From assembly GCA_004022145.1 (NCBI GenBank), contig RCNU01000006.1: a DNA stretch of 64,000 nucleotides; one strand, written 5' to 3'. A program made the translations under genes and the position numbers. Of this stretch, positions 46,602 to 64,000 are shown in pieces. How positions within the stretch are numbered: position 1 is the first letter of the stretch; each line of letters opens with the position of its first letter. The notes under the pieces are model-generated. The model made no database searches. It was not told the DNA's origin and saw only the letters and a list, made by a program, of their open reading frames with translations. This DNA is from Paecilomyces variotii. Lineage: Eukaryota.

Positions 46602-47065
46602 ATTTTTCTTTTCTTTTCTTTTCTTTTCTCATTTCCGTCTTTCTACGCTCGTACCTAACTATCGCTACACGCGAGAGTTCCCTTTCTCTCTTCCAGCATC
46701 GTTCTCCCGGGTCCGAGACCCGTTCTTTCCTCACGTACATGCAGCGTCTACGAATTGATGTCTCTTCCGCGGTATATCGATGGCGTCTTTGTCTGGTTCC
46801 TTTCTCGTCTGGCGTCGGGTGTCGTTATTTGATCAAGAGCATAAGATCCAGCAACTGCTGCGGCAGGCAGCATTGCAGCATCGTCTATCTCTCTGTATGT
46901 ACATACATACTACCGCCGCCCTTGGGCCATGAGGGATGTTGCCAATAGACCTGGTATACAAGGTCGATTAATTGTCTCCTCATGTCTGTCTAGCTTATCT
47001 AGTCTGCAGTAGTGTAGTCCTAATCAGAATACAAAGTGTACATATACGAATCAATCTCGTAGCCC

Positions 47066-47095
47066 GCCATTTAGACAGTAGCCATTTAGACAGTA
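47066..47095 (+). repeat. Perfect 15-bp tandem duplication (GCCATTTAGACAGTA x2)
   Basis: Read directly from the sequence. Confidence 0.85.
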
Positions 47096-47289
47096 ATACT
47101 CCGTCATATCATTACTTGACTCGTTCATCTGAATGACTTACCATGATTCTATCTACTACTCCAATGCACGACCCATGCATAGGGCCCTGAGAACCAGGGT
47201 TCGGTTTCGGAACCGATCATACCCTTCACCGCTAACTAAGTATCCGAGGCAATAGTCAGCGAAGACTGGGGCCAAAAAAAAAAACAGAT

Positions 47290-47322
<33 letters not shown>

Positions 47323-48017
47323 GCTTCTTAACTACACACAAAGCATTATTATTACTAATTCTATAAACGCCTTATTAGTTAAGCAATAACTCATTTGTAG
47401 TTAACTAGTTAAAGCCTGGGGCCAAAAACTGCTTAGCTAAGCTTAGTCTGTTGGTTAGTTAACTATCACCACGTGATCCATGACGTCGGGAAAACGTCGG
47501 GAAGTAACTAGTTAGGTAGTGCCTGGACTAAGTAACGTCATAGTATATAATAGTTACTCTAAGCAAGAAGTTAGTAGACTTAGCGGTTGGATAATTAAAT
47601 CATTCAATCTATTGCTCTGGCCTGATTTTTTTTGTTATTCTGGGAGGATATCGAGGTCATTTAAGTCATTGCTCAATTTGGACAAGTGGGTATAATATAC
47701 CTACCTAAACTACCAGGTAACTAACTACTAAGTTAGTAGGGCATGTGTTAAAAACGGGTTCTTTTTATTTTTATCTACGATCGAGATGGACGGTTTAAGT
47801 ACGTATCCTATTCCATTGTAGATGAAGAATATATGTATATATGCGAGAAAAGAAAAAAAAAAGGTTAAAATTCATTAGGAAGTAAGTATGTTACCTCGCA
47901 AACTTATCAATTTTACCTTCAAGCTCCTCGCCTCCTACGAAGCTGTTGCAACTATAAGCAGCCTTAAGAAAAATGATAGAAAAAAAAAAAAAAAAAGGCC
48001 GATCTCCTATCCTATCC

Positions 48018-48681: not shown

Positions 48682-49764
48682 TCACTTTGACCGCATCTTA
48701 TAGTCCCTACAAAGTGCTTCCTCTCTCGTGGTCAGTTCGAAACGAAATGTCTTGTCCCACGCCCTTCTGGCCGCGTAGTCAGCCAGGTAATTGCCTGGCA
48801 CATCTCGATGCGCAGGGACCCAGTGGAGTTCAACTGACACGAAAAGAGAAATCAAGACGTTTGCGAGCTCAATTACTTCCTCCACCAATATATTCGTGCC
48901 CTTCTGTTTTGCCCTTGTAAGATGCAGGATCATCCTCAATGCCTCTTTGCAATCGGAATAAATGACGAGGATTTCTTGCTCTCCGTGAGCACCGTTGGAG
49001 ATTCTCTCGACGGCCTTATCATAGGCGATCTGTAGAGCTCGAAGGATGGCCAAAAGCTCAATATCCGGACAACCCATGTCTCCATGAACTTTGTATCCTA
49101 GGATCTTCCACGAAAAAGGGGATCCTTCGTCCGTGGATTTGGACACAACTGCAACCCCGGCGGCATTTTTCCGATCCAGGTGTTGCGCAACAGAACCATC
49201 AACCCAGTATACGGTACGGTTGCGAATTCTTCCTCGTAACCTATATTCAGACAAAGCGTATGCTAAAGCCTGGATATGAGTTTGGATGATGACACTGCCC
49301 GCAAAAAGTGGAAGATCATCCTCATCGCGCAAAGACATAAGCGATGATTGTCGCGGCTGCTGTTGTCCTTCAGGATACCGATATCCATCAGGAAGTACCA
49401 TGTCGTCTAATTGAATACCATCCTTGAGAATCTGCTGGCGAATGATCTGTATTTCGTCGAGAGAACAAGCCTCTTCCAAAAGCAAAGTTTCCCGGTTCGT
49501 CGAGAACCTCGGCTTCTTGTATTTTAGTTTCGTGTTATGATCGGGAGAAATCTTTCTCTTTCTCGAAGCCCGCCTTGATGAGGAAGAGACGCTAGCTTCT
49601 GGAAAGGACCGACCTGTATCACTGTGAGTCCTAAGGGGATCGACAGTATTGACGCTGCTCTGGTCTGTCATACCTTTCACATCGGAGCGCTTGGGAACAT
49701 CTGTAGTACTAGTGTCTGGAGAGGCTGGAGTTGACGCTGATAAGACTGATGAGAGATTACCCAT
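48682..49764 (-). CDS. Stand-alone RNase H-like domain protein
   Basis: YWVDGS, AGVAVV, IELLAILRAL, IYSDC and ELHWVPAHRDVPGNYLADYAAR; all four acidic catalytic positions present; disordered N-terminus with NLS-like RKRK. Confidence 0.82.
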   Translation of the reverse strand: MGNLSSVLSASTPASPDTSTTDVPKRSDVKGMTDQSSVNTVDPLRTHSDTGRSFPEASVSSSSRRASRKRKISPDHNTKLKYKKPRFSTNRETLLLEEACSLDEIQIIRQQILKDGIQLDDMVLPDGYRYPEGQQQPRQSSLMSLRDEDDLPLFAGSVIIQTHIQALAYALSEYRLRGRIRNRTVYWVDGSVAQHLDRKNAAGVAVVSKSTDEGSPFSWKILGYKVHGDMGCPDIELLAILRALQIAYDKAVERISNGAHGEQEILVIYSDCKEALRMILHLTRAKQKGTNILVEEVIELANVLISLFVSVELHWVPAHRDVPGNYLADYAARRAWDKTFRFELTTREEALCRDYKMRSK

Positions 49765-50845
49765 GATGAGTGCAAGTAGGAAAAGGACAGTAGGACGTGG
49801 TTCAGTTAGATGAAAGAAATAAATTTGAAGATGAGAAGTAGATAGTGAGAAGGACAGTCAATAGAGTGACAAGGAGTTTCGCTTATTGTGTTTGTTCAGG
49901 AATAGGCTTAGTGACATATATGAAGATGCCTAGGGAGCAGTGTGGTGAAAGTGTTGCTGAGTTAACTACCCTTGGTACCTTCGACAGTAAGAGCGAATCC
50001 CCACTCACAGGGAAACAATCAGCCTACTCAGATGCTCTGGACTGTCTGATATCTCAGAGAAGAAGTTCCTCAAAGGCTGCCCATGTTTCCATGTTTATGT
50101 TGCTCCTTTAGAGCACATGACAAAGAAAGCGCAGCAGAGGAGAGGCCTTTAGAGTATCGACATCGTAACGCCTGTATCTCCTCCAGATAGATATAAGCCA
50201 GAAAACAGTCCCGCTTCCGTGTGACTATTTTCCTTTTCACCTTTGGAAAAGTCTCATAACTCATTTAGAGTACAGAGGCAATTACAGTTCCAGAAATATA
50301 CTACTAAACACCGGAGCCACAGAAACATTACAGCCACATTTCAGAGTCATATGACCACCGGAACAAGGGGATGTGGAATAAGTGACTCTCGCCGACAGAT
50401 TTTCACCAGGAAGATCTTATGTGATTATTAACGCGTATCGCTGCTGTCTATAATGAGCATGTACAGATGTGCTATGCTGAGGATGCGCATAACAGACTGG
50501 CGGAAAAACCGCAGCGCTAGCTCGCATAAGTCGATTGAAATGGACTGTGCTATATCGAGCATGACTGGTATAGTCGGCAGATTCGATATGATACCATTAT
50601 GGTAGGAACGAGGCTGCACCCTAAGCGATGATATTGACGACCATGTGAATACCGGAAGTCTGCGGATCGACAGGGCGGAGGACAGCTAACGTATTAAATA
50701 CGTTCCTCTCATAAAGCGTAGCAAGAGAGAAGAGTCTCTTAAGGAGATAAAAAGAAGTTCTGCATTATCTGAACCGAACAAGATATGAGTCAAATATACA
50801 TGGAAGTCGAGAATATAAATAGTCCGGAATATCGGGCTCCATCAA

Positions 50846-51648
50846 TCAATCAACATTATAAACATACTCGCGCGCGAGGAAGCCGGTGGCATTGAACGCG
50901 CGCCGTTCCGCGACAAAGTCTTTCAATTGTTCGAAATTGCGACACTGTCGAGTAACGCCGCTTCCAAGGTGGGCGTTCATTTTACCCTCGGCCGGTTCTA
51001 TAGTCGTGTCCGCAGCACAAGTGATACTTTGCTGGAGATAGTCGAAACAATGTGATAAATGAGCCGCACGGTTTTTGCCGAGGTCAAATGGTTGAATGTC
51101 GTCGGACTGTGAATAGTAGGCTCGTCGTATGACATACAGACAGTGTAGTTGATGGAAGACGGTAGGGATGGAGACTTGGGGGGCAAGACTTTCATCTTTG
51201 AAATAGCCCAGTCCGTCTGGGTTGCAGTGGGTATATGTTAGCGATCGAAGCGTAGAAGAGAGGGAGACTGCTTAGGATCAGTTCAAGACTTACTGGGAAC
51301 CAAAGAGTCCCAAATTGGTTCTGCTATCTGTCCTGCGCCCTCGCCCTGCGGTGGCTCCTCCGAAAAGGGAGTGGGATAAGTGAATTCTCCTGGGATGTTC
51401 TGCAGTGGGATGCGGGGTGCAAGGTGATTGAAAGCATGGCAATTTATGATCATGGCGTGGATGCGGATCGACAGGACTCCCGCAACAAAGCCCAGAATCG
51501 CAGCAAAAATCGTCCAGCCTGCAATCTTCCGAGTACTGGGTTCTCGTAGGGGATACATTCGTGGCGCACGAAGTCCATCCTCTAGAGTTTCATCCGATGG
51601 TGAATCGAGACGTTCATATTTTGGTGGTCTATCGTGTGCCGAAAGCAT
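50846..51648 (-). CDS. UstYa-family (DUF3328) oxidase; one intron ~51220-51292
   Basis: N-terminal TM helix, WDSLVP, exon 2 with two HxxHC motifs (FHQLHCL and HLSHCFDYLQQSITCAADTTIEP), then RQCRNFEQL. Confidence 0.88.
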
Positions 51649-52582
51649 GGCTGATGAATGCTGTATGCAGTTCTAGATGAGTATGAACAAAAAGAAAGAT
51701 GATCAATCGAGTTAACCAGAGAGAGTCTTTTGTCTGCGACATGCCCCGGTTTCGAGGGGTACAAATCTCAGTCGGAAGTTGGCCGATGCGCTGCAAGCAC
51801 CCTAATTATAGGAAACACAATTAGTCTAGGACTCTAGGCTATCTACCAGGTTCCTCACTAGTCCAGCTGTCGTTAGCTTCTTAAGAAAAAGACTTACGCA
51901 GCCTCCAAAGCATTCGGCAAGGCGGCTGTGAAACCCTAACGTCCGTAACCGACCTTAGTTTAGTGCAAGACGCGCACGCGACGGCTATCTATCCTCGATC
52001 GGGCGATATTGAAGTTTTTTTTTTGCATCCATCCAGCAATTTCTCCTACTCTTTTCCATGGTAACCTGGTCCTGTTCCTAACCGCTTCAGCGAAAGTGTC
52101 CACTATCTATCCTCTTTCATTTACGCGGCCGTTCTTGGCGTTTCTACCCCGGGATTCCAGAAAATGTTGCCCAGGCTCGAATTTGCTCAAATTGATCTCG
52201 CTCCTTTGCCAAGCCGATTCCGGTCTTATGGAGACTTTCGTGGGCATTAAAAAAAAAGATAACAGTCCTTCAGCATCTGGACGGTATATCTATGCCCTAA
52301 TCCATTTTCTGCATCCGGCCCGTTATTAAGGGCTTTAGGAGAGGGGATACGTGTCGACTCCAAGGATCGAGTGAACCCGAGTGATTCAACGGCCGGGCAA
52401 AAAATGGATGTAGAAAAAAGTGATGCTAGTAATTGAATAGCATAGGTCCCGAATCAACGAAAATAGAACAAGTAGACCTCCATTAGAAGGTCTGCTCTCT
52501 TTATAGTTCGCAGTCCTATTCATAATTGGATCGGAAATGGCCATTCATTGCACATAGTACACTTATATCCATATAATCTCAA

Positions 52583-54526
52583 CTAGGACGTCTTAGGAAG
52601 AGTTTCTCTTAACGCCCGCGGTGAGATACTCTTTACTTCACCCGTCGTCGGATCCAGCTCGAAGAGAAACTCGTCAAGTCCCACATTTCCATAGTTAGAC
52701 TGGTCTACTAGCTCCCAGGTTGAACAAGATTTGGTGAAGGGACCTGTTCCAGAACCTGCATCCGACGGTGACACGAAGATAGCTCTGAATGAAACTTGAG
52801 ATGGGGTGCGCAGCCCTGTAGGGTTAAGGTGGATGACTGGATTGGAGATACCCGAGAGAGCAGACGATGATACGACATCGAACATGTCCACGGAGTTGCT
52901 GATCCATTTATCAACTCTCAAACCGGGACCGTCATCTATGGAGATCGAGATGGAGGAATTGCTTGTCGCCGTAACAGACTCGTAGGTACCAGCATAAGTT
53001 GTGTTCGCTTCAACTTTGGCTGCCTGCTCAAGAGCAGGGAGTAGTTGTGCGGAGATGAGATTGGAGAGCACAGCAACAAGACTTGTTGTGTCATCGCCTG
53101 CAGCGAGGATCGTGAACCCTACCCCGTGGTCTGGTGACAGGGCTGTCGATGATGAATAGCTTCCAAAGTCTCCAGCTTTCGTGTACAGGTCAATCACGCG
53201 CCCGTTTCCTTGAAAGCTGTATATTTCCCACGGTGCACCCACGGAGGAGTCGATCGAGCCTGTGTGGGTGACTGGTCTCATCCATCGCCGAGTCAGGGCC
53301 GGAGAGATCAGTGTGTTATTCAGTATGGCTCGGCCGAGCGTAGTCATATCTTTCGTTGAGGAATACAGACCTCCGGCTCTATGTTGAAGATCCAACGATA
53401 CTTCTAGTCAGACAAATAAGAGAGTTTGTATAGAGAGATTCCCACTTACGGAGTTTCATCACCTGCAGGTATATTCCATCCACTTGACGTCGCATCGCCT
53501 GGAATAACTCCGTACTGATCAGGTGGTGTGGAGATGTATGATCTGGTCATGTTGAGAGGCTCGAGAATGTGTTTAGATAGCAACGACCCGTATGTATGCC
53601 CTGATATAGCTTCCAACACATACGAAAGAATCTGAATGGCAGCATTGGAATAGATCGGTGTGAACGATGTTGGAGCCATAGGATGTGTCTTCGTTATCCC
53701 TTCAAAGAACTCTGGCCAAGGCTAGCAGCTTCATGAGACGAATCCAGATGATTCATTTGTACGTACGAGACCTGTTGCACGGCGCGATGGAGCCACAAGG
53801 AGGTATTTCAGATTTTGGAAGTTGGGGAAACCCATATTTCGTCAAGGAAGGGGCGGTAAGAGACAAGTCCAGGAATCCGTCTTGATCTTCGTGTTAGAAC
53901 TATTCATGATATTTATTGTAGAAGAGGGCTACTGGAGACATCCGTATACGTATAGGAATGAACTTACAGTCTCTGCCCAGACCAGCCAGATGAGATGCTA
54001 GCTCAAGTACAGTTATATCTTCCCATCTTGTGAAATCAACTAGGACATTCCTTTCAGTGGTATTTCCAGCTGTGTTGCGGGCAGCCTTTCGCAGTTCGGG
54101 GATATATTCGGTGATCGGATTGTTGAAGTGTTTTTCACCATCAGCGATTAGGAACAAGAGAAGCGTCCAGAGCTTTGATCCACTTCCAATTCGAAATACA
54201 GTATCCTCGTCAACGGTATGTACACCACTTGAAGCGTTACTCGTTAATGGTGCAGTGTGATAATATTCAAATAGCGGGTTGGTTTTGGAAGCCGAATATA
54301 TTTGAATGGTGAAAGAGTTGGTATCGTCAAGGATAGAAGAGGCGGACGAATTCGCCGCCGCCTGGACGAGCTCATCAAGTGTCTGAGTTATATTCCGAGA
54401 TGCGATGTTGAATGCTTCTGATGTGACTGGATTGACAGCGGGTGGGAATACAGGTCCAAGAAGGGGGCAGTATTGAACTGCCTCCGCAGTGGCAAGGACG
54501 TATGAGAATAGCAAACTTCTTTTCAT
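52583..54526 (-). CDS. Secreted beta-lactamase / serine-peptidase family protein, multi-exon
   Basis: Signal peptide, CPLLGPVFP, FRIGSGSKL (SxxK), LASHLAG, PIYSN, GGLYSS, GAPWEI and YTKAGD motifs across introns. Confidence 0.87.
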
Positions 54527-54903
54527 ATTGAATTGACGGAAAATATGGATGGATTAGAACGCAGAAAGGAAGTAGAGAATTCCGATGAAGTAGCCCAATT
54601 CTATTGAGATATAGCTGTCTAAGTCAATATTTATGTCGCTTGAAACCCCCAAAGCATCCTGCGCCTGTCTATTTATATGCGAGATGCCCAATAAGATTCC
54701 ATCTAATACGAAGTATACCACAAGGCGTCCAGCTACACTACCTACTTTCTCACATGATACGTCAAAAACATCCGATTTGGCCAATCACGATACTGTTAGG
54801 ACGTTAGCGAGAAGATCTAGTCACTGAACGACACCAAGAAACCAGTGGAGGCTTAGCTCCTACTCTAGTATGGACTATGGAGTATGGAGTAATTACATGG
54901 GAC

Positions 54904-54996
54904 TAGTCTTGGCATTGAGTTGACTGAGTTGTATGTACCTACTTTCAGGCGTCCAACTTGGGGCCGAAAGTTGAACTCAACTCAATGCCAACACTA
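54904..54996. mobile_element. 93-bp MITE-like element with hAT-type TIRs
   Basis: Left TAGTCTTGGCATTGAGTTGA; right TCAACTCAATGCCAACACTA, whose reverse complement matches the left end at 19 of 20 positions; no TSD visible. Confidence 0.7.
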
Positions 54997-55120
54997 GCTA
55001 ACTATTATTCGCGGATATTTAAGGGATTAGGTAGTATATAGTGCCGGAGTTGGATATGAAGCTAGACTGTGCACATCTTATCTCTATTATCACTGCCGGA
55101 TCTACTGAATTAATTAGTTT

Positions 55121-58100
55121 TAATGTTGGCATTGAGTTAAGTCCAAGCTCAACTCGGCTCCGAGGCATGATTGGAGCTAAGGAGGCGAGAAGTAACAGGT
55201 GGGAAGTTGCCAGCACTCGACCTACCTAACTAATTACTTAGTTTCACTAGTCTAATTTCGCGTTATTAGGGGGTTGGCTAAAGGTATCCAAAGCTATATA
55301 TTAGGCTTAGCCCATTACATTAGTAGAGCAATATAAAGAATAAAATAAGTTTATAATATACTCCATAAATTAATTCCTGACCTTATTCCATCCTATGTTA
55401 TAGGGTATTAATTCGCGGCCGTAATTTTGGGCGATTTTGGCGGGCGATTGGCGCCCGACCCGGGGTCGGGCAGGATATAAGTTACCATACTAGGTTATTA
55501 TTCACCAATGATTGACCTAACTAGCTCTTACCTCCAGGGCTGAAGCTAATTATTGCTTATTCGGGCCCCCTCAGATGAGGCTCACTTCCTTTGCCACTTC
55601 AGCTCCTTAAAGTCTTTAATATTGCCTGCTAATCCTTCTCGCCCGATTTTGTCTTTGAATACAATACAGAGACTGAGGCAGCATGCGTGACACCGGAGGA
55701 GGTTTCAACGAAAGAGAGGCTAAGCGACCCAAGTACGAGCCAGGCCAGGATTTGCTGCGATCATCAGCACTGAAGGCATTTACCCATACCGACTACACAG
55801 TGGGATGGATCTGTCCACTACAGATAGAGCTTATTGCAGCTCTCGAGATGTTGGATGAGGAGCATGCAAAGCTGCCGCAGCAACCTGCGGACCACAACGT
55901 CTATCATTTGGGTAGTATTTCAGGCCATAATGTCGTTATTGCCGGGATGTGGCAGGCTGGAAATCCTACAGCCGCAACCGTCGTTGCACAGATGCGAATG
56001 ACATTTCCCAATATCCGATTTGGCCTGCTGGTTGGCATTGGAGATGGCGTCCCCGTTGTGACAGAACATGGGATGATTCGACTTGGCCATGTGGTGGTCA
56101 GTAAGCCAACAGGGCAGTCATCTGGTGCTATCCAATATGACCGTGGAAAGGCGGAAGATGGTATATTTGTGCGAACTGGCGCTTTAGCTCTGCCACCGCC
56201 AGTTCTCCTTCTGGCTGCAGATTCCCTAGGCGCCCAGCGTGCTCGTTCAAGAGAAGACCCATTGCTACAGAACATCCAACGTATTGACACCAGCCTCCCT
56301 GGGCTGCGCTGCTATAAATTCCCCGGCAACAACAAAGACTACCTTTTTCCGGCCGAATACAAACATCTTCGTCCTCGAACATCATGCGAGGCGGGTCAAT
56401 GTGACCTATCCCAACAGATTTTTCGGGATGAAGACGAGATATATGCGGCAGATAAGTGGATTACCGTTCATCGAGGCACGATCGCTTCTGGGGAGGTCGT
56501 ACTCAAGGATGCCGTGAAGCGAGATCTTCTAGGCCAAGAAAGTGGAGTTCTATGCTTTGAAATGGAAGGTGCTGGCGCATTAAGTGATTTTCCATGTCTT
56601 GTGATCCGCGGCATCTCAGACTACTGCGACTCGCATAAGAATGACGAGTGGCATGGCTTTGCTTCAGCTGCCGCGGCTGCCTACGCGAGGCAGCTCTTTT
56701 TTCACATGCCGATAGACAAGGTAAGGTAGTGAGCATAATACATTCCCAATTCCTGCACCGATACACTGACTAATTATAGAAGCTAAGTCTAGTACCTGTT
56801 GACGATCCTGGGATAAAGAGGATAGTTGGAAGAAGCGATGACGAGGAACGACACAAAATTGTCGAATGGATTTCATCAACCAATTACACAACCTCCCAAG
56901 CTGACATTCTGTCTCAAAGATGTGAAGGAACTGGACAGTGGCTACTAGACGTACCCGAATTTGGTGATTGGGTAAAGAAGAAAGGAATACTCTATTGTCC
57001 TGGCATTCCTGGAGCTGGAAAAACTACATTGGTGTCTATCGTCATCAACCATCTTCAAGAGATCTTTGCCAAGAATCAACAAGTCGTTGTTGCGTATATC
57101 TTCTGTGACTATCGAGAACAATCTAAGCAGAAGCTGAACAACATACTTGGAGCGATTTTGAAACAGCTTGTCCAGCCAATGGAAACCCTCCCAGATGATT
57201 TGAACATGTTATACAAGTCTCATCAAGCCACTGGATCAACACTGCAGAGGAATGAGCTGACCGAGCTACTCATTTCAGTCGCAAATTACTACTCTCGGGT
57301 TTATCTTGTCATCGACGCATTAGATGAATGCCCAGACTCGGATGGAACACGGAGTACATTTATATCTCATCTACTCAAACTTCAGAAAAACTGCAATGTC
57401 AATCTCCTCGCAACTTCAAGGTTCATTCCAGATATAACGGCGAGGTTCGGACATTTCCCTTCCGTGGAGGTCCGAGCTAGCGATGCAGATGTGGCGTTGT
57501 ATACAGAGGGGCGTATACATGAGTTCAACTGTGTGCGAAAAAACCCAGCACTTTCTAAGCTTGTTGTTTCATCCATTACCAAGACCTCTGATGGAATGTA
57601 GGATTGCCCTATGAAGATTAAGCCTACCTTGCGGCGGAAAATTTGGCTTACTTTATACCTAGGTTCCTCCTCGCAAAGCTCTACTTGAATTCCCTGAAAG
57701 GTGAACCCTCTGTCAAATCGATCAAATCTGCTCTCAGCAGACTCCAATCTGGGTCAGGAGCATATGATAATGCATACCAAAAGGTTATGGAGCGAATTGA
57801 GCATCAAATTGCTGGACAGGCAAGTCTTGCTAAGAGATTGTTATCGTGGCTTACTTGTGCCCGGCGCTCCCTCACTTTGACAGAGCTTCAACATGCTCTT
57901 GCTGTGGAGACTGATCAGAGCTTTTTTGATGAAGAGAATCTTCCAGACATTGAAGACATGATCTCTGTCTGCGCTGGCTTAGTGACCTATAGCGAAGAAA
58001 GCCATATAATTGCGCTGGTTCATTACACGGCAAAAGAATACTTTGAAAGAGAATGGTCTTCCTGGTTTCCCCATGCCCAGGGTAATATAGGTAGGATATG

Positions 58101-61100
58101 TGTGACCTATCTCTGCTATGACTCGTTTGAATCTGGATGTTGCGAGACATTGGAAGATTATGAAGAGAGGTGTCGTCGATATCCTCTCTACAATTATGCC
58201 GCATCGAACTGGGGTTTCCATGCACAAAGGCAACGCCTTGATCACGAGCTTGTTTTTCAATTACTGGAAAATGATAAAAAGCGAGCAGCATGTGCGCAAT
58301 CTCTGATTTGGTCCGATCATACCTACGGGATCGAGTTTTGGAAAATCCCCAAAGATACCACAGCGCTCCAGCTGACGGTCGAGTTGGGCCTTCTCTACGA
58401 AACAGAGTACCTACTAAAAAGTCACCATGATGTTAATGTCCACTCAGATTTCTTCGACACTCCGATTATAACGGCCATTAGTAGTGGCAACGAAGACTTG
58501 GTACGCCTTTTGCTCCGCCACGGGGCGTGTCCTGGCGATATGAGTGATTTTGGAGCAACTTTGGTCTCCATTTCAGCAAGCATGGGTCATGAGGCTCTCC
58601 TCGGCCTCGCCCTCGAACTGGGTGTAGATCCCGAACTTGGTGACAGGAATGACCGCAGCCCTCTCTCATATGCAGCGGAAAATGGCCACGTCAAAGCCGC
58701 TAAGATGCTGTTAGATGCAAAAGCAGATATCGAAAGAAAGGATAAATGGAATGGTAGGACACCCTTGGCCTGGGCAGCTGCCAACGGCCAACAGGCTGTT
58801 GTCCGTCTGTTACTTGAAGCAGGTGCTCGACCTGATACTAAGACCACCGGAAGTGCGATATATCACGTCGCGCGGACACCTCTTTCTCTCGCTGCCCAAA
58901 ACGGAAAGAGAGAAGTCGTGGAGCTATTACTGGAAAAAAATGTTGATCCAGACGAACCCGATGCCAACGGTCGAACGCCACTTTCGTGGGCTGCCGGGGA
59001 GGGCCATCTAGATATAGTCCGAGATCTCCTCGCCGCGGGTGCAAATATAGATCGAATGGATGCACCGAAAGATGGGTTGCTGTGTTTTGGTCGTACGCCG
59101 CTGGGATGGGCAACGCGCTCGTCCCAACAAGCTGTCGTTGAGCTTTTGCTGGAAAAGGGGGCGAATCCTAATTCATTTACTGAGGAGTCACCATTATCAA
59201 CTGCTGTCCAATCAAAAGATGCGCAGTTGGTTGAGCTGTTACTCAGATATGGAGCAGATCCCAACCCAAATAATCGTCTGCGTCATTCAGACATTCTTGG
59301 ATATGCCATTCTTGTCAAGGACAGAAGGATGCTAAGATCTCTGGTGAGATATGGGGCCCAACCTGAAGCTACTACGACTCGTGATGATGCATTATCATGG
59401 GCGGCTAGGAAAGGTCATACCTTGTTTGTCGAAATGCTTCTAGAAGAGGGTGCTGATATCAATACGAGAGACCCACAAAGTGGAGATACTCCCCTATCAT
59501 ATGCTGTGATAAACAAACACGAGGAAGTCGCTGCACTCCTAATCGAGAAGGGAGCTGGTGTTGATGTCCAAGATTGGAATAACCAAACAGCATTGTCAAA
59601 GGCAGCAAAACGAGGAACCACAAACGTGGTCACGCTCCTGCTTGAGAGAGGCGCAAATATCGGATCCAGAGATAACTTCGGCCAGACACCACTTTTTCAT
59701 GCCCTCGAGCATGGGAACGAGAGAGTCGTTGAGCTTCTACTCGAGAAAGACCCTACTCTATTCCACAGCCGCGATGAGGTTGGCCGTAGTGCTCTCTTGA
59801 TTGCTACAGAGAATCGACTGGAGGCAGTCCTGCGGCTTACTAGAGAGACCCAAGAGCATTCCGAGATACTTACTAGGGAGCTGGGAGCCGTTCTCCGCAC
59901 CATATCCTCGCCACAATACGATCTAACGCAGAGCAAGAGCAGGAAATTATTTCTATGGGCGGCTAAATATGGTCACATGGAGGTGATTGAATTTCTAGCG
60001 GGAAAAGGCATCAGTTACGTCTGCGAAGATGAGTTTGGAACAACATCTTTAAATTTGGCTGTCAGAAACAGCCAAGCTGCTGTGATCGAATTTTTACTGA
60101 AGGAAGGTATTCAGCTAAATACGGTAGATGGTTCAGGCTACGCTCCGCTTTCATGGGCTTTTATCGACAATAATGATACCATCGCTTGCTTTCTATTGTC
60201 AAAAGGTGCAGACCCTCATAAACCCGTCAAAATTAGACCAAGTCTGAATGCCGGGCGTCTGAATTCCCCTTTATTCTTGGCTGTCAGACGAGGATTCGAA
60301 AGAACTGTTAAACTCCTTCTGCAAATGGGGGCCGATCCAAACTCGTCTATCACCGTTGGGTCACAGTTTGATGTATTGTCTCTGGCACAATGTATCCCTG
60401 GGAGTGTCTTATCCACTGCTGTAGGCAATGGAAACTACAGCATCGTCGAGGCGCTCTTAGATCGCGGTATCGATAATGGTCTCTGTCATGATAGCCTTAT
60501 CTTGGCAATGCAGTTCCGCGATACGCCGCTTGTTTCTCTCATCATGCGAAAGGGAATTCGGGAAAATTGGCTAATTGAAGAATATGGACAATCTGTCTTG
60601 TTCTGTGCAGTATTTTTTGGTCATATTGATGTGGTGCAAAGCCTGCTGGATGCAGGCATGGACGCCAATACGCGGCCCACAAAGCGTTCTATTGACTTTC
60701 CCCGAAGAAATAGAAGGAGGGGGCAGCATTGGGAGCAGCGTGCGGGTGGAAATGTCACTCCATTGCGGTTTGCTGCGCAGGAGGGTCACGAGGCGGTCGT
60801 TAGAGCCCTTCTGGACAAGAAAGCGGACCTGGATGTCGGATCACCATTGCAGTGTGCAATCGATCATGGCCATGCAACAGTGGTCGAGCTCTTGTTGCAA
60901 CATGGAGCGAGGATGGATATTCAAGATCGTGGCTCTCTTCTCTTGCAAGCCGCCCGAAAAGGTCATCATGACTTGCTCAAATTTTTACTCAGAAAGGGTC
61001 TCCATTCGGAGTCAGAAGCCTCTAATAAAGGGTGCTTAGTCCTTGAAGCGGCCTCAAACAAGCATATTGATGTCGTTCGTGTTCTCCTTGAAGAGGGGAT

Positions 61101-62913
61101 AGATCCAAATTCCGTCGATAAGATCGGTCGAAATGGGTTGATATTGGCAGCAGAAAAAGGACGACCCGACATCGTGGATATTTTGCTTGATTACGGTGTT
61201 AGTGCGAAATCTGCAGATTATCTTGGACGCACTCCGTTGTTCCTCGCAGCAGTGACACGGAATGTTCCTGTTGTTAAAACTCTTCTTGAAAAAGGAAATG
61301 CGGATCCGCAAAGCACGACATGTGCTGGACGTTCCCCCCTGTCCGTGGCCCATGATTTCAAGTTTCACGAATTGATTTGGCTTCTAAACGGAAAGAAAAA
61401 CGGGAGTTCCTGTCCTGAAGAGCACAATTTAGGTACACCTGTTGATAATTACTGGATCTGCGATACTTGTGAACGCCCTCTCTCTGAGATGGAGTGTTTT
61501 TCCCGCTGTTCAATTTGTCAAAACTGCGAGTACGAAAGTCCATTGCATGTATGCATGGAGTGTGTTGCTGGGCAGTTAGGCTGCTATGATAAGTTACATA
61601 CCTTGGAGAGAGTGGTTTTAATTGAGGGTAGACCGATTACCATTGACAAAACTTCCAGGTGGCGCCAGCATACATTGCCGTTTCACCCTGCTCCTAATCT
61701 GCCACTATAAAATCAGTCTGGATTAGCCTCCTTTGAATATATCGCGACTATGTAGTACTTGAACAAACTTATGGCTCTCTGTTTCTACTCTCAGAAGACT
61801 ATACACCTAGATAAACCAGACAGGCTCTTTTGATGCAGGTTTATATAGCATCGCTTCTACTTCGTAAGCCTCAAACTGCCCCCTTTGTAGCCTGATCGTT
61901 ACCCTCAGTCATCATTACTTCTATGGTCGAGGCATTTGCCCCTATTTACCTCGAAGGAAAGAGTATTTATCGACCATTTATAAAAGGCTTTCAAAGCAAG
62001 AAATTGGCTTATAGCTCTTCCTAAGAGACTACGTGGATGATCAACTCAATTAAAGCAAGGTTTCAAGAGATCTAATCGAGAAGCAAAGAGCTACTTGAAC
62101 AGTCACTATCAAATCTGTTTTCTAAAGTTATCTATAATCTAGGTTTCTAACGACACTTTTCGAACAATAGCTAAGCTAAAAAAGCCTTACTCGATGGAGC
62201 TGAATTTATAACAAGACGCATTAGTCTTTCGAAATTAATAATAAGATATTATAGCTCTTGTTCAGCACAGACTTAGTAGGGTCACTAGAAGTATAACGTA
62301 GAGATCTTAATATTAACTAGAGAGAAAGTAAACCTAGCATGATGCTAGAGTTCATAGAGCAAAATATCCGACACCGCCACTGATAATTAGACTGCTAGTA
62401 GACTATGTAGCAAATATCACCTGCAAACATTTTGATCGAACTTACTCCCGAAGGGCTAAAGAATTCCTGGTTTTTTGGAATCGAAAACCTCCTTCTCCAC
62501 CATGTAAACTTCATCAATCAAAGGCCGTGGTAGCTTGTTTGTTGGTCGTGTGGTCTTCTCCGTCGTAGGACCGACCATACAGAATATACACTTTTATAAA
62601 AGGCAAAGTGTGGACTTTGACCAAGCAAGGGTACGTATGCTGACATGCCTTACGGGCCAAATAGAGCAAGTAAAGCGGGATAATCCATTGCTGACCATAG
62701 TTCGGAAGATGACATGGACACCTAGCATCCTATTAAGCAGCATATAATTCACAATATGTCTTCTCCAGAGTTCCTAGGGTTTTATGATTCAGATTGCCGT
62801 TATCGGCCTCGTCGAGGTGTGCCTCGGTGTCGCCTTAGATCAGAAGCCTAGAACTACTTGCTGGACCTAAACACTCGGTGCCGAGAGTTAAACTCAACTC
62901 AATGCCAACACTA
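55121..62913. mobile_element. Putative non-autonomous hAT-like (Pack-type) element of ~7.8 kb carrying an NLR gene
   Basis: TIRs TAATGTTGGCATTGAGTT (55121-55138) and AACTCAATGCCAACACTA (62896-62913), 17 of 18 complementary; flanks ATTAGTTT / ATTGATTT (degenerate 8-bp TSD); subterminal CTCGG-nn-CCGAG palindromes at both ends. Confidence 0.65.
55683..61710 (+). CDS. Fungal NLR-like protein: PNP_UDP effector - NACHT - ankyrin repeats - C-terminal ZZ-like zinc finger; introns ~56721-56779 and ~57598-57663
   Basis: DYTVGWIC, CFEME and IRGISDYCDSHKNDEW (PNP_UDP); Walker A GIPGAGKT and Walker B LVIDALDEC; GMFLLAKL; over 20 ANK repeats (GRTPLSWAA); WICDTC..CSIC..CMEC..H. Confidence 0.92.
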
Positions 62914-63657
62914 ATTGATTTAAAAGCTGTTCTACAGAGCTCAATTCCCTTACTATCGTACTGCTACGTATTTATAAAGGAGGGCTTAATTCCACGTGCC
63001 TTTATCCGTCCCCCTAATACAACTAGTGCTCGTACCTGCAGGCTCCCCTGCCAATTGAAATAAATATAGCGAATAACATAATGCCACCTAATCAGGTTCG
63101 GCTGCATGGTAGCGTTGTTAGTCTGATATATATGTGGGGATAAACTAACCTATCGCAGCTGTTATTGAATCAATATGGATGTAGATTTTGACTAGATGGG
63201 TTAAAGGCCCTAGATGAAGATCTTTGGCTATCTCAGGTCACAGCTTATGCGAACCCATTACATCTTCTTGGAAAGATCATTTACGAAGGATCTGGTGCTG
63301 TAGGAGGCACCACAGATAATACTACAGGAGGTCGTCGTGGAAATGAATCGAGTAGAGAGCCAAATTATCAGGACATTGATTCGCTGATTTGCTGTTTCCA
63401 AGTCCTATGATAGAGGAGTTATCGGCACTAGAATGAGGGGTATATAGTGAGCGCGCAACATATCTGCACTGTAGGCTCTTGGGTGTTGATAGAATGCTTG
63501 ATTCTCTAGGATCGAGCTTGAAGCTCCAAGCCATCCAAACTATCTTTCAAAGCATCTCACTATGCTCTACAGGGGTATGAAGTAGTTCTCAAATGGGGTC
63601 CTCAACATCATACCTATCAAATCCTCCCAAGGTAAGATTCGAGGCATCATGTTCTTC

Positions 63658-64000
63658 TCACTCCGCAGGCATGTCTCTTTCAAGTCCCTCCAAAACATGA
63701 CCCACAAGGACCTTCACTGCCTCGTCCGCTTTCTGTTCAAGTTCGTCGGGAACTTTGTGAACCGTGATACCTGGAGGGGCTATGACAGGAATCTCGTCCG
63801 GGGTACTACTAGTCTTTAAAATGCATTCCATTAGTACACATATGATGAGCCCATATTGACGAACATACCGGGAGGCTACTGGCATAACGTTGGAATACGC
63901 CGAGATAAGAGTCTTTGTGAGGCTCCGCACCGACCTTGTCGACCGCATCTTGGATTAATTCTTCGAACTGTCCAAGTTCATCAGTTCCATCCATGGAATT
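63658..64000 (-). CDS. Possible hypothetical or degenerate gene at the window edge
   Basis: Two short ORFs can be joined in frame by a GTATGT..AAG intron (YASSLP/TSSTPDEIPV); no recognisable domain; downstream frames contain stops. Confidence 0.3.

Follow-up and report, generated by a model that had tools for sequence, protein, structure and literature searches.

Fungal NLR repertoires turn over fast, and giant Starship elements are, to our knowledge, the sole vehicles documented so far for whole NLR genes. In plants, Pack-MULEs usually hold gene fragments, are multi-copy and have TSDs of 9–10 bp. The terminal consensus of hAT elements is (T/C)A(A/G)NG, and mimp is a TA-flanked fungal MITE derived from Tc1/mariner. 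According to excerpts of one study (PMC11162782), Starships span tens to hundreds of kilobases, have a tyrosine-recombinase captain and carry NLRs as 'auxiliary' genes, and the genus concerned is rich in them. A precedent for gene capture by a smaller element, described in excerpts of a second study (PMC6710886), comes from Pseudocercospora fijiensis and related Dothideomycetes, in which fungal hAT elements of about 9.5 kb with 20-bp TIRs and 8-bp TSDs hold a captured host gene, histone H3. These elements have a hAT transposase domain, hundreds of copies and identical TSDs, and all captured histone H3 copies are inactivated by RIP.

Here we describe a 7,793-bp segment, in a 64-kb window (the whole stretch of DNA analysed, to which all positions refer), in which an intact NLR gene lies between two opposed inverted ends. 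Like the histone H3 elements as excerpted, it is a candidate fungal TIR element (7.8 versus about 9.5 kb) with TIRs of about 20 bp, an 8-bp flank repeat and a host gene inside; unlike them, it is known from one copy, has an imperfect flank repeat, no transposase in the ORFs scanned and no evidence of movement, and its intact cargo fills the whole interior. As in plant Pack-MULEs and transduplicating TIR elements, host-derived DNA lies between non-autonomous ends that enclose no recognized transposase, but here this DNA is a complete 6-kb gene plus the non-coding DNA on either side of it, in one known copy. The segment resembles Starships, as far as the excerpts describe them, in being a proposed vehicle that places NLR genes in fungal genomes, and differs from them in its length of 7.8 kb and in the lack of a captain among the 28 of 33 large window ORFs scanned.

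Results

The segment is bounded at 55121 and 62913 (Table 1). Recomputation reproduced the first-pass annotation of these ends: the left end TAATGTTGGCATTGAGTT and the reverse-complemented right end TAGTGTTGGCATTGAGTT are complementary at 17 of 18 positions. An inverted-repeat search recovered the pair over 23 nt at 91%, and a gapped alignment extends the inverted similarity to 44 nt at about 80%, with one gap of 4 nt. The 15-nt core of the ends occurs four times in the window, against 0.18 expected, and none of 100 shuffles contained four or more; the four ends of this family known within the window all lie inside 8 kb. As the earlier annotation held, each end also carries a subterminal CTCGGnnCCGAG palindrome; it is absent from the rest of the window. 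Its exact form, CTCGGNNCCGAG, has just two copies in the 64 kb, one near each end in subterminal position (55153 and 62874), against 0.10 expected per window, and 1 of 100 shuffles contained at least two.

Table 1 Positions of the features at the NLR locus and the evidence for each.
Feature	Positions	Strand	Evidence
Beta-lactamase family gene, left neighbour, outside the candidate element	52583-54526	-	Pfam Beta-lactamase on two ORFs; ORF list
MITE1, complete family member of 94 bp	54904-54997		Arm complementarity, alignment, fold
Left flanking 8-mer ATTAGTTT, candidate TSD	55113-55120		6/8 match to right 8-mer
Left end: 18-20 nt TIR and palindrome CTCGGCTCCGAG (55153-55164)	55121-55171	+	Inverted-repeat alignment, palindrome count
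Interior 5' non-coding DNA, presumed NLR promoter and leader	55172-55682	+	ORFs without Pfam match; no repeat elsewhere in window
NLR gene, three exons, intact, 1,967 aa	55683-61710	+	Open coding sequence, Pfam, public annotation P0001
Interior 3' non-coding DNA	61711-62853	+	ORFs without Pfam match; no left-type TIR
Right end: TIR and palindrome CTCGGTGCCGAG (62874-62885)	62854-62913	-	Homologous to right arm of MITE1
Right flanking 8-mer ATTGATTT, candidate TSD	62914-62921		Match to left 8-mer

The two flanking 8-mers, ATTAGTTT and ATTGATTT, are equal at 6 of 8 positions and differ at the other two by A/G; counting the terminal TA of the right end as well raises the match to 8 of 10. Among 2,000,000 random 8-mer pairs, the probability of a match of at least 6/8 was 0.0045 window-wide and 0.017 among AT-rich 8-mers, falling to 0.0006 and 0.0025, respectively, when mismatches were limited to transitions. 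On their sequence, the flanks look like a decayed 8-bp duplication. Duplications of 9 or 10 bp (Mutator-like) and of 3 bp (PIF-like) were rejected, as the boundaries that they need spoil the symmetry of the TIRs. The termini of this pair, TAATG and TAGTG, fit the (T/C)A(A/G)NG type.

The first-pass annotation had allowed that the two TIRs might belong to independent insertions, each with its own partner. Neither end has a nearer partner in the interior, where the best inner TIR match (11–13/20) is at the null level obtained from 300 random 1.06-kb stretches; a left-type TIR was not found in the 3' non-coding interior, and no other repeat linking the interior with its flanks or with the rest of the window rose above background.

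The NLR gene is the sole content found between the ends. Its exons (55683–56720, 56780–57597 and 57663–61710) form an open frame with one terminal stop, and Pfam places in it an N-terminal, nucleoside-phosphorylase-like PNP_UDP domain (PNP_UDP_1, E = 2.6e-08), a NACHT/NPHP3_N NTPase (NPHP3_N, E = 4.7e-39; NACHT, E = 1.4e-06) and about 14 ankyrin stretches (Ank_2, E = 7.8e-157). A single open gene thus combines NACHT, C-terminal repeats and an N-terminal effector-type domain, as is required of an NLR. The intact PNP_UDP, NACHT and ankyrin gene of the earlier annotation is therefore upheld apart from its ZZ domain, for which Pfam gave no match on exon 3 (E ≤ 0.01) or on the last 119 aa (E ≤ 10). 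The domains follow the order seen in other fungal PNP_UDP NACHT-ankyrin NLRs, an architecture common to hundreds of Pezizomycotina homologues, and the only oddity seen is a Cys-rich C-terminal tail that falls in no class. This tail is spliced out in the public gene model and, as a query, retrieved only two distant proteins (54% and 45%).

The first 1,845 aa are 100% identical to P0001, a Paecilomyces variotii hypothetical protein. We found 455 proteins that match the NLR at E ≤ 1e-20; among the best 120 listed, only two exceed 62% identity, and these are allelic forms (100% and 86–88%), both named as the same species. The number of ankyrin repeats differs among alleles. The best non-allelic protein among the same 120 of 455 matches is 62% identical, and they include no second copy or close paralogue of the NLR. 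A missing paralogue is explicable, because no donor copy would remain if it had been lost or if movement was by cut-and-paste.

Across the NLR span, TpA/ApT is 0.61, (CpA+TpG)/(ApC+GpT) is 1.44 and the composite RIP index is −0.83; by the thresholds for RIP indices used here, a RIP signature is absent. The canonical TpG>TpA context accounts for only one of the two changes inferred in the candidate TSDs and for one of the two left-end G>A differences. The flank similarity noted in the first-pass annotation therefore holds, but its explanation of the G>A changes by RIP appears ad hoc, given this index and the half of the changes that lie outside TpG.

A further member of the family, which the earlier annotation overlooked, sits in the promoter region of the gene to the left, 124 bp upstream of the claimed left end. 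This 94-bp copy, MITE1, has arms (54903–54923 and 54977–54997) that are 95% complementary, folds into a hairpin of −23.5 kcal/mol (z −6.0) and, over its positions 36–93, is 82% alike to 62854–62913. Its termini are TAGTC and TAGTG and its flanks CATGGGAC and GCTAACTA, with TA on either side; with boundaries scanned within 3 nt, no pair of 8-mers with at most two mismatches surrounds it. Because MITE1 has TA flanks and lacks an 8-bp duplication, the case for a hAT element and for a TSD is weaker than in the first reading. A TA-duplicating family is equally possible, because TA borders all three end pairs, and this TA could just as well be the opening dinucleotide of hAT-type termini. If the family does duplicate TA, then the match between the flanks of the big pair is a coincidence and nothing binds the two ends to one event. 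By description only, MITE1 can be set beside mimp-type MITEs, being a short hairpin with TA either side in a promoter region; the big pair, in contrast, shows an 8-bp flank repeat that would be unexpected from a TA-duplicating family.

No transposase domain was found by Pfam in any ORF scanned in the window or the segment, in agreement with the earlier annotation of the interior; the scan covered 28 of the 33 window ORFs of at least 180 aa, nine smaller ORFs in or beside the segment and the C-terminal 119 aa of the NLR. The beta-lactamase family neighbour is transcribed away from the NLR, the neighbour on the right lies beyond about 63650, and positions 1–47 kb of the window hold housekeeping genes, among them those for WDR3/Utp12, ARPC2, UTP23, RRN3 and lysyl-tRNA synthetase. 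With these neighbours and no captain-like domain in the 28 of 33 large ORFs, we rejected the possibility that, within the 64-kb window, the NLR is Starship cargo. The 22-nt end pattern had no match in a metagenome scan. Two metagenome loci recovered with the two-TIR pattern (L001 and L002) are unrelated, consisting of 71-nt hairpins in ACGGT-type tandem repeats with different termini. These scans thus yielded neither a further copy of the family nor an autonomous partner. A full-text literature search with the TIR core and its reverse complement returned no paper, and in the literature on fungal NLRs and TIR elements only Starship work was relevant.

We compared the locus with four other assemblies: X18, X10 (a lineage about 5% diverged), X5 (which bears another species label) and X9; the comparison, which misses copies less than 85% alike, yielded 929 differences. 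The left end is in place in three of the four (X18, X10 and X5), whose contigs run through MITE1 and the left end, and the right end is in place in X18 and X10 among the pieces listed. X9 is represented by four short pieces (34–422 nt), all inside the NLR, and is uninformative on the ends. The empty site anticipated by the first-pass annotation, with a single ATTGGTTT-like 8-mer, was seen in none of the four assemblies, and neither was presence/absence polymorphism of the ends. None of the six joints listed for these assemblies spans 55121–62913, and none of the 12 loose ends listed, of 13, falls at either boundary. In X10, likeness to the window breaks off at 55171 and the strongly diverged part extends from there to about 60448, with 487 and 903 unmatched letters adjoining 55171 and 58399; because of this span, the variation does not track the boundaries of the element. 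The claim that the NLR was captured and moved thus found no support, with no empty site or joint in four assemblies and no second NLR copy among the protein matches listed.

Discussion

A single TIR-bounded unit that encloses the NLR is a fair reading of this locus, because the ends belong to one repeat family, stand in correct opposition, have no nearer partners, share a palindrome found nowhere else in the window and are flanked by 8-mers that resemble a decayed duplication. Our judgement is evenly balanced on the fuller statement that a single TIR element, old, fixed and non-autonomous, makes up the 7,793-bp segment and has the NLR as its interior. In structure alone, a host gene does lie between the ends of what would be one element, as in Pack-type elements; in the limited sample compared, no empty site, polymorphism or further copy indicates that the composite transposed. 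A gene-carrying transposon is accordingly a candidate only, and we think it unlikely that the NLR was transported as a unit with the ends. What the analysis shows is the ends, their palindromes, the similarity of the flanks, an intact gene and its conserved position; joint insertion of the two ends, the superfamily and any movement of the NLR are inferred.

If the segment is one element, both ends would come from a low-copy inverted-repeat family with TIRs of 18–20 nt, inverted similarity that extends over about 44 nt, and a palindrome in subterminal position, the last of which may be a putative transposase-binding site. The TA(A/G)TG termini, together with a decayed 8-bp direct repeat, would suggest hAT-type cut-and-paste insertion, and the interior would consist of one intact NLR gene together with the non-coding DNA on its 5' and 3' sides. 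The NLR could have arrived with the ends as a Pack-type cargo element, or it could have been copied by repair synthesis into a small resident element that was immobile thereafter. In the most specific version, a hAT-like non-autonomous element took up the complete NLR with its promoter and transposed as a 7.8-kb unit into a housekeeping region, MITE1 being an internally deleted derivative that hopped locally; we would put only modest weight on this whole sequence of events, which seems to us improbable. Whichever the route, the unit would today be an ordinary chromosomal locus, at the same position in every relative sampled, and its NLR probably evolves as fungal NLRs do elsewhere, its ankyrin repeats being hypervariable and its alleles deeply diverged.

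The ends may instead be unrelated leftovers of two separate copies that lost their inner halves around an always-resident NLR, in a TA-duplicating family (Tc1/mariner-like MITEs) whose flank match arose by chance in AT-rich DNA. This is the rival that fares best, and we consider it somewhat doubtful. That the family inserted repeatedly or hopped locally here is proved by its complete third copy, MITE1, only 124 bp away, and this copy has TA flanks and no 8-bp duplication. The right end also resembles the right arm of MITE1 (82% over 60 nt) more closely than it does the left end (80% over 44 nt, including the 4-nt gap), the NLR and the ends occupy the same place in all informative relatives with only allelic kin among the matches listed, and the chance of the flank match, up to 0.017, does not yet allow for free choice of boundary and length. 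However, two independent truncations of exactly the inner half would be required, with inner partners gone without trace, in addition to the coincidence at the flanks, and the exact palindrome kept at only these two ends stays unexplained.

A second rival holds that the repeats were never mobile, being hairpin motifs or remnants of small local inverted duplications around the NLR, such as palindromes that have a regulatory role or are prone to recombination. Consistent with this, the known ends number only four and lie within 8 kb of one another, no copy outside the locus appeared in the collections searched or in the literature, and no presence polymorphism was seen in the assemblies compared. 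Yet the termini agree with the form TA(A/G)NG expected of hAT ends, the 94-bp unit is MITE-like in its size, its hairpin and its promoter-proximal position, and the flank repeat is left unexplained; moreover, the arms of the family are only about 82% alike, and copies below 85% would escape the assembly comparison. We regard this reading as very unlikely.

Least probable of all, and in our view barely tenable, is an active or recently active Pack-hAT family that spreads NLRs across fungal genomes and whose TIR and TSD differences were made by RIP: the structure is compatible and RIP is experimentally active, according to excerpts of PMC6300479, in the species named by the best protein matches, but the insertion is older than a split of about 5% divergence and than the separation from another species label, the NLR is single-copy apart from alleles among the 120 of 455 matches listed, its span is free of a RIP signature, the canonical context accounts for just half of the changes in the TSDs and in the left end, and a duplicated 7.8-kb unit should not survive intact in a RIP-proficient genome.

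The locus, which we regard as a well-formed candidate for a single element with an NLR as its interior, mainly records a possible past event rather than an ongoing process, because it is old, fixed and single-copy. If a small cut-and-paste element did carry a complete NLR here, fungi would have a second route for the reshuffling of immune receptors, much simpler than the first, in which small transposons relocate them independently of Starships. Gene capture by TIR transposons, of which histone H3 is the known fungal case, would then extend to a large multi-domain gene, and one that stays intact in a RIP-proficient genome.

The enclosed NLR gene

The interior of the segment holds one gene, which encodes an open protein with the Pfam domains PNP_UDP_1, NPHP3_N/NACHT and ankyrin repeats (see table). 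Residues 1–1,845 are identical to the public P0001 (a Paecilomyces variotii hypothetical protein according to its source), in whose model a predicted intron that follows the last of these residues removes the Cys-rich C-terminal tail. This tail is common to two distant proteins (54% and 45%) and matched no Pfam family. The ZZ domain assigned to this gene by the first-pass annotation was not recovered: Pfam gave no ZZ match at E ≤ 0.01, nor in the C-terminal 119 residues when the cutoff was relaxed to E ≤ 10. The reported lack of a transposase inside the segment held, with no such domain in 28 of the 33 window ORFs of at least 180 aa or in nine smaller ORFs in or beside the segment.

Searching public proteins with the non-repeat part of the NLR after the NACHT domain gave 455 matches at E ≤ 1e-20. 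Among the 120 listed, two exceeded 62% identity: P0001 (100%) and P0002 (86% in the query region, 88% overall), the latter almost identical in its N-terminal half and variable in the repeat region. Since both are named as the same species by their sources, we regard them as alleles, with no close paralogue among those listed; P0002 is a third allelic form of the NLR.

Features of the segment and its surroundings
Feature	Position	Details
NLR-bearing segment	55121-62913	7,793 bp
NLR exons	55683-56720, 56780-57597, 57663-61710	GT-AG introns of 59 and 65 nt; 1,967 aa
Cys-rich NLR tail	61351-61707	
Palindrome CTCGGNNCCGAG	55153, 62874	32 and 28 nt inward of the segment termini
Complete 94-bp family member	54904-54997	124 bp upstream of the left end
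Inverted pair	55264-55284, 62999-63019	21 nt, 86%; first arm inside the segment, second outside
RNase H-domain ORF	48682-49857 (-)	391 aa; 5.7e-08
AT-rich island	47001-48000	GC 36%
Sequence just right of the right end	62931-63278	~350 bp; recurs in run X18
Short piece	63489-63525	37 nt; matches other contigs of runs X10 and X18

Segment ends and a nearby family copy

The left terminus at 55121 reads TAATGTTGGCATTGAGTT and the terminus at 62913 is the reverse complement of TAGTGTTGGCATTGAGTT, with agreement at 17 of 18 positions. The repeat search paired these ends over 23 nt at 91%, and a gapped comparison gave inverted similarity over 44 nt at 80%. The 15-nt core of the terminal inverted repeat (TIR) has four copies across the 64 kb of the window, where 0.18 would be expected, a count reached in 0 of 100 shuffles, and the subterminal palindrome has exactly two (0.10 expected). 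The flanking 8-mers, ATTAGTTT and ATTGATTT, are identical at six of eight positions, both mismatches being A/G, and the direct repeat becomes 8/10 on inclusion of the right end's final TA. In two million random pairs, a match of at least 6/8 had a probability of 0.0045 for any window 8-mers and 0.017 for AT-rich 8-mers, or 0.0006 and 0.0025, respectively, with mismatches restricted to transitions. The coordinates and sequence features of the first-pass annotation were correct, the ZZ domain excepted. The 21-nt inverted pair that straddles the right boundary is probably due to chance.

That annotation did not include a further, complete copy of this inverted-repeat family, 94 bp long, which lies in the promoter region of a beta-lactamase-family gene. 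It folds into a hairpin (z = -6.0) with 21-nt arms that are 95% complementary, and its right arm is 82% alike to 62854-62913 over 60 nt. The 8-mers on either side of it, CATGGGAC and GCTAACTA, show no relation; with all boundaries within 3 nt scanned, every 8-mer pair had more than two mismatches, and the matches were TA, CTA and CTAG only. All three end pairs have TA at their borders: hAT-type termini would begin with these two bases, whereas a Tc1/mariner-type family would produce them as its target duplication. In the latter case the similar 8-bp flanks of the segment would be coincidental, and there would be nothing to link its two widely spaced ends to one insertion event. The ends may belong either to hAT or to a TA-duplicating family.

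One unit or two remnants

We give roughly even chances to the segment being a single bounded unit. Its ends are in the correct mutual orientation, they alone keep the exact palindrome, and the sequence on either side is reminiscent of an 8-bp duplication that has decayed. Neither end has a nearer partner: the best ungapped interior match to the appropriate TIR type, 11–13 of 20, equals the null distribution. That the two ends are independent remnants of separate family copies is possible but doubtful. The 94-bp copy shows that the family arrived in the neighbourhood more than once, and this sole complete copy lacks an 8-bp duplication; however, independent copies would require two truncations, each removing precisely the inner half, together with the flank coincidence.

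The locus in other lineages

Part of 54500-63500 was present in 18 rows of public runs, and six runs with one species label contained 0.93–1.00 of its sampled words. Four runs (X18, X10, X5 and X9) were compared over 50000-64000 at a likeness of at least 85%, a threshold below which family copies elsewhere in these genomes would be missed (the known arms are 82% alike). X18 is colinear throughout, its contigs covering 54360-60047 and 61595-63998, so that both segment ends are in place, and the 94-bp copy is present as well. X10, of the same species label, differs by ~5% in the flanks (247 other letters over 50000-54719). One of its contigs spans the left flank, the 94-bp copy and the left end as far as 55171, after which come 487 letters unlike the window; a second is unbroken between 60448 and 63998, right end included, and lacks two large blocks of ankyrin repeats (58468-59435 and 59614-60448), with 903 unmatched letters ahead of 58399. 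The 5' half of the locus is less than 85% alike, against 94–95% for the flanks and 3' part. The region of strong divergence (55171 to ~60448) does not match the segment boundary on the right and looks like ordinary NLR allelic divergence; in X10 the locus is conserved but its NLR allele has diverged deeply. In X5, which carries another species label, a 638-nt contig over 54555-55199 places the 94-bp copy and the left end; most of the NLR is present, with divergence of 5.5–9.1% there versus 1.6–3.7% in the left flank. X9 gave four short pieces, all within the NLR gene.

None of six listed joints in these four runs spanned 55121-62913 as an empty site would, and none of twelve listed loose ends fell at either segment boundary. 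With the left end in place in X18, X10 and X5 and the right end in X18 and X10, the arrangement is older than these lineages, none of which showed an empty site. The arrangement is old and fixed, and these comparisons lend no support to the proposed transport of the NLR.

Several differences lie nearby. In X10, 45 bp of intergenic region at 54719-54765 are replaced by 12 other letters. X18 has a 78-letter replacement at 62978-63009 and a second copy of 62931-63278 ~4 kb on, past the window end (~85–88%), which suggests a local repeat or structural variant adjoining the segment. Loose ends start at 63482-63489 in X5, X10 and X18, and the 37-nt piece there may be a short dispersed repeat or breakpoint.

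RIP and the wider neighbourhood

RIP is described as experimentally active in the species named by the sources of P0001 and P0002 (PMC6300479). Dinucleotide indices gave no RIP signature over the NLR span (TpA/ApT 0.61, (CpA+TpG)/(ApC+GpT) 1.44, composite -0.83). The composite of non-coding parts was 0.07 and 0.15 inside the segment and -0.03 outside, values we take to be borderline alike. RIP had been proposed behind the G>A flank changes; the NLR is without signature, and ordinary transitions explain the two mismatches equally well. That the 6-kb ORF is intact speaks against duplication of the unit through a sexual cycle. Elsewhere, the AT-rich island is RIP-like (1.34, 0.78 and 0.56 for the same indices) and may be a RIP-degraded repeat relic.

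Housekeeping genes occupy 1–47 kb (amidase, WLM protein, WDR3/Utp12, ARPC2, UTP23, RRN3 and lysyl-tRNA synthetase), and the left neighbour, the beta-lactamase-family gene, is transcribed away from the NLR. The RNase H-domain ORF may encode a cellular RNase H or may be what is left of a retroelement. Two metagenome contigs (L001 10690-10780 and L002 690-780) hold a 90-nt hairpin, nearly the same in the two, with ACGGTAGACGGTGGACGGT-type tandem repeats to its left and right; the 13-nt core that it has in common with the TIR is a chance match, and we rejected both contigs as unrelated to the family. A search of full-text literature found no paper with the TIR strings.

Discussion

Fungal hAT elements described as capturing histone H3 are ~9.5 kb long, with 20-bp TIRs and 8-bp TSDs, in hundreds of copies, all RIP-inactivated (PMC6710886), and NLRs are listed among Starship auxiliary genes (PMC11162782). 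Unlike these, the present locus would be single and transposase-less, its interior one intact large gene. A Starship context was rejected within the 64-kb window, which is core chromosome with housekeeping genes over 1–47 kb.

The original observation is confirmed, less the ZZ domain and amended by the nearby 94-bp copy. A Pack-hAT interpretation is a reasonable, unproven candidate; in its strong form, a Pack-hAT that moved a whole NLR, we judge it improbable. Most likely, the segment is a single non-autonomous element of ancient origin, made up today of two ends and the NLR, which would either have ridden in with the ends or have been acquired in place.
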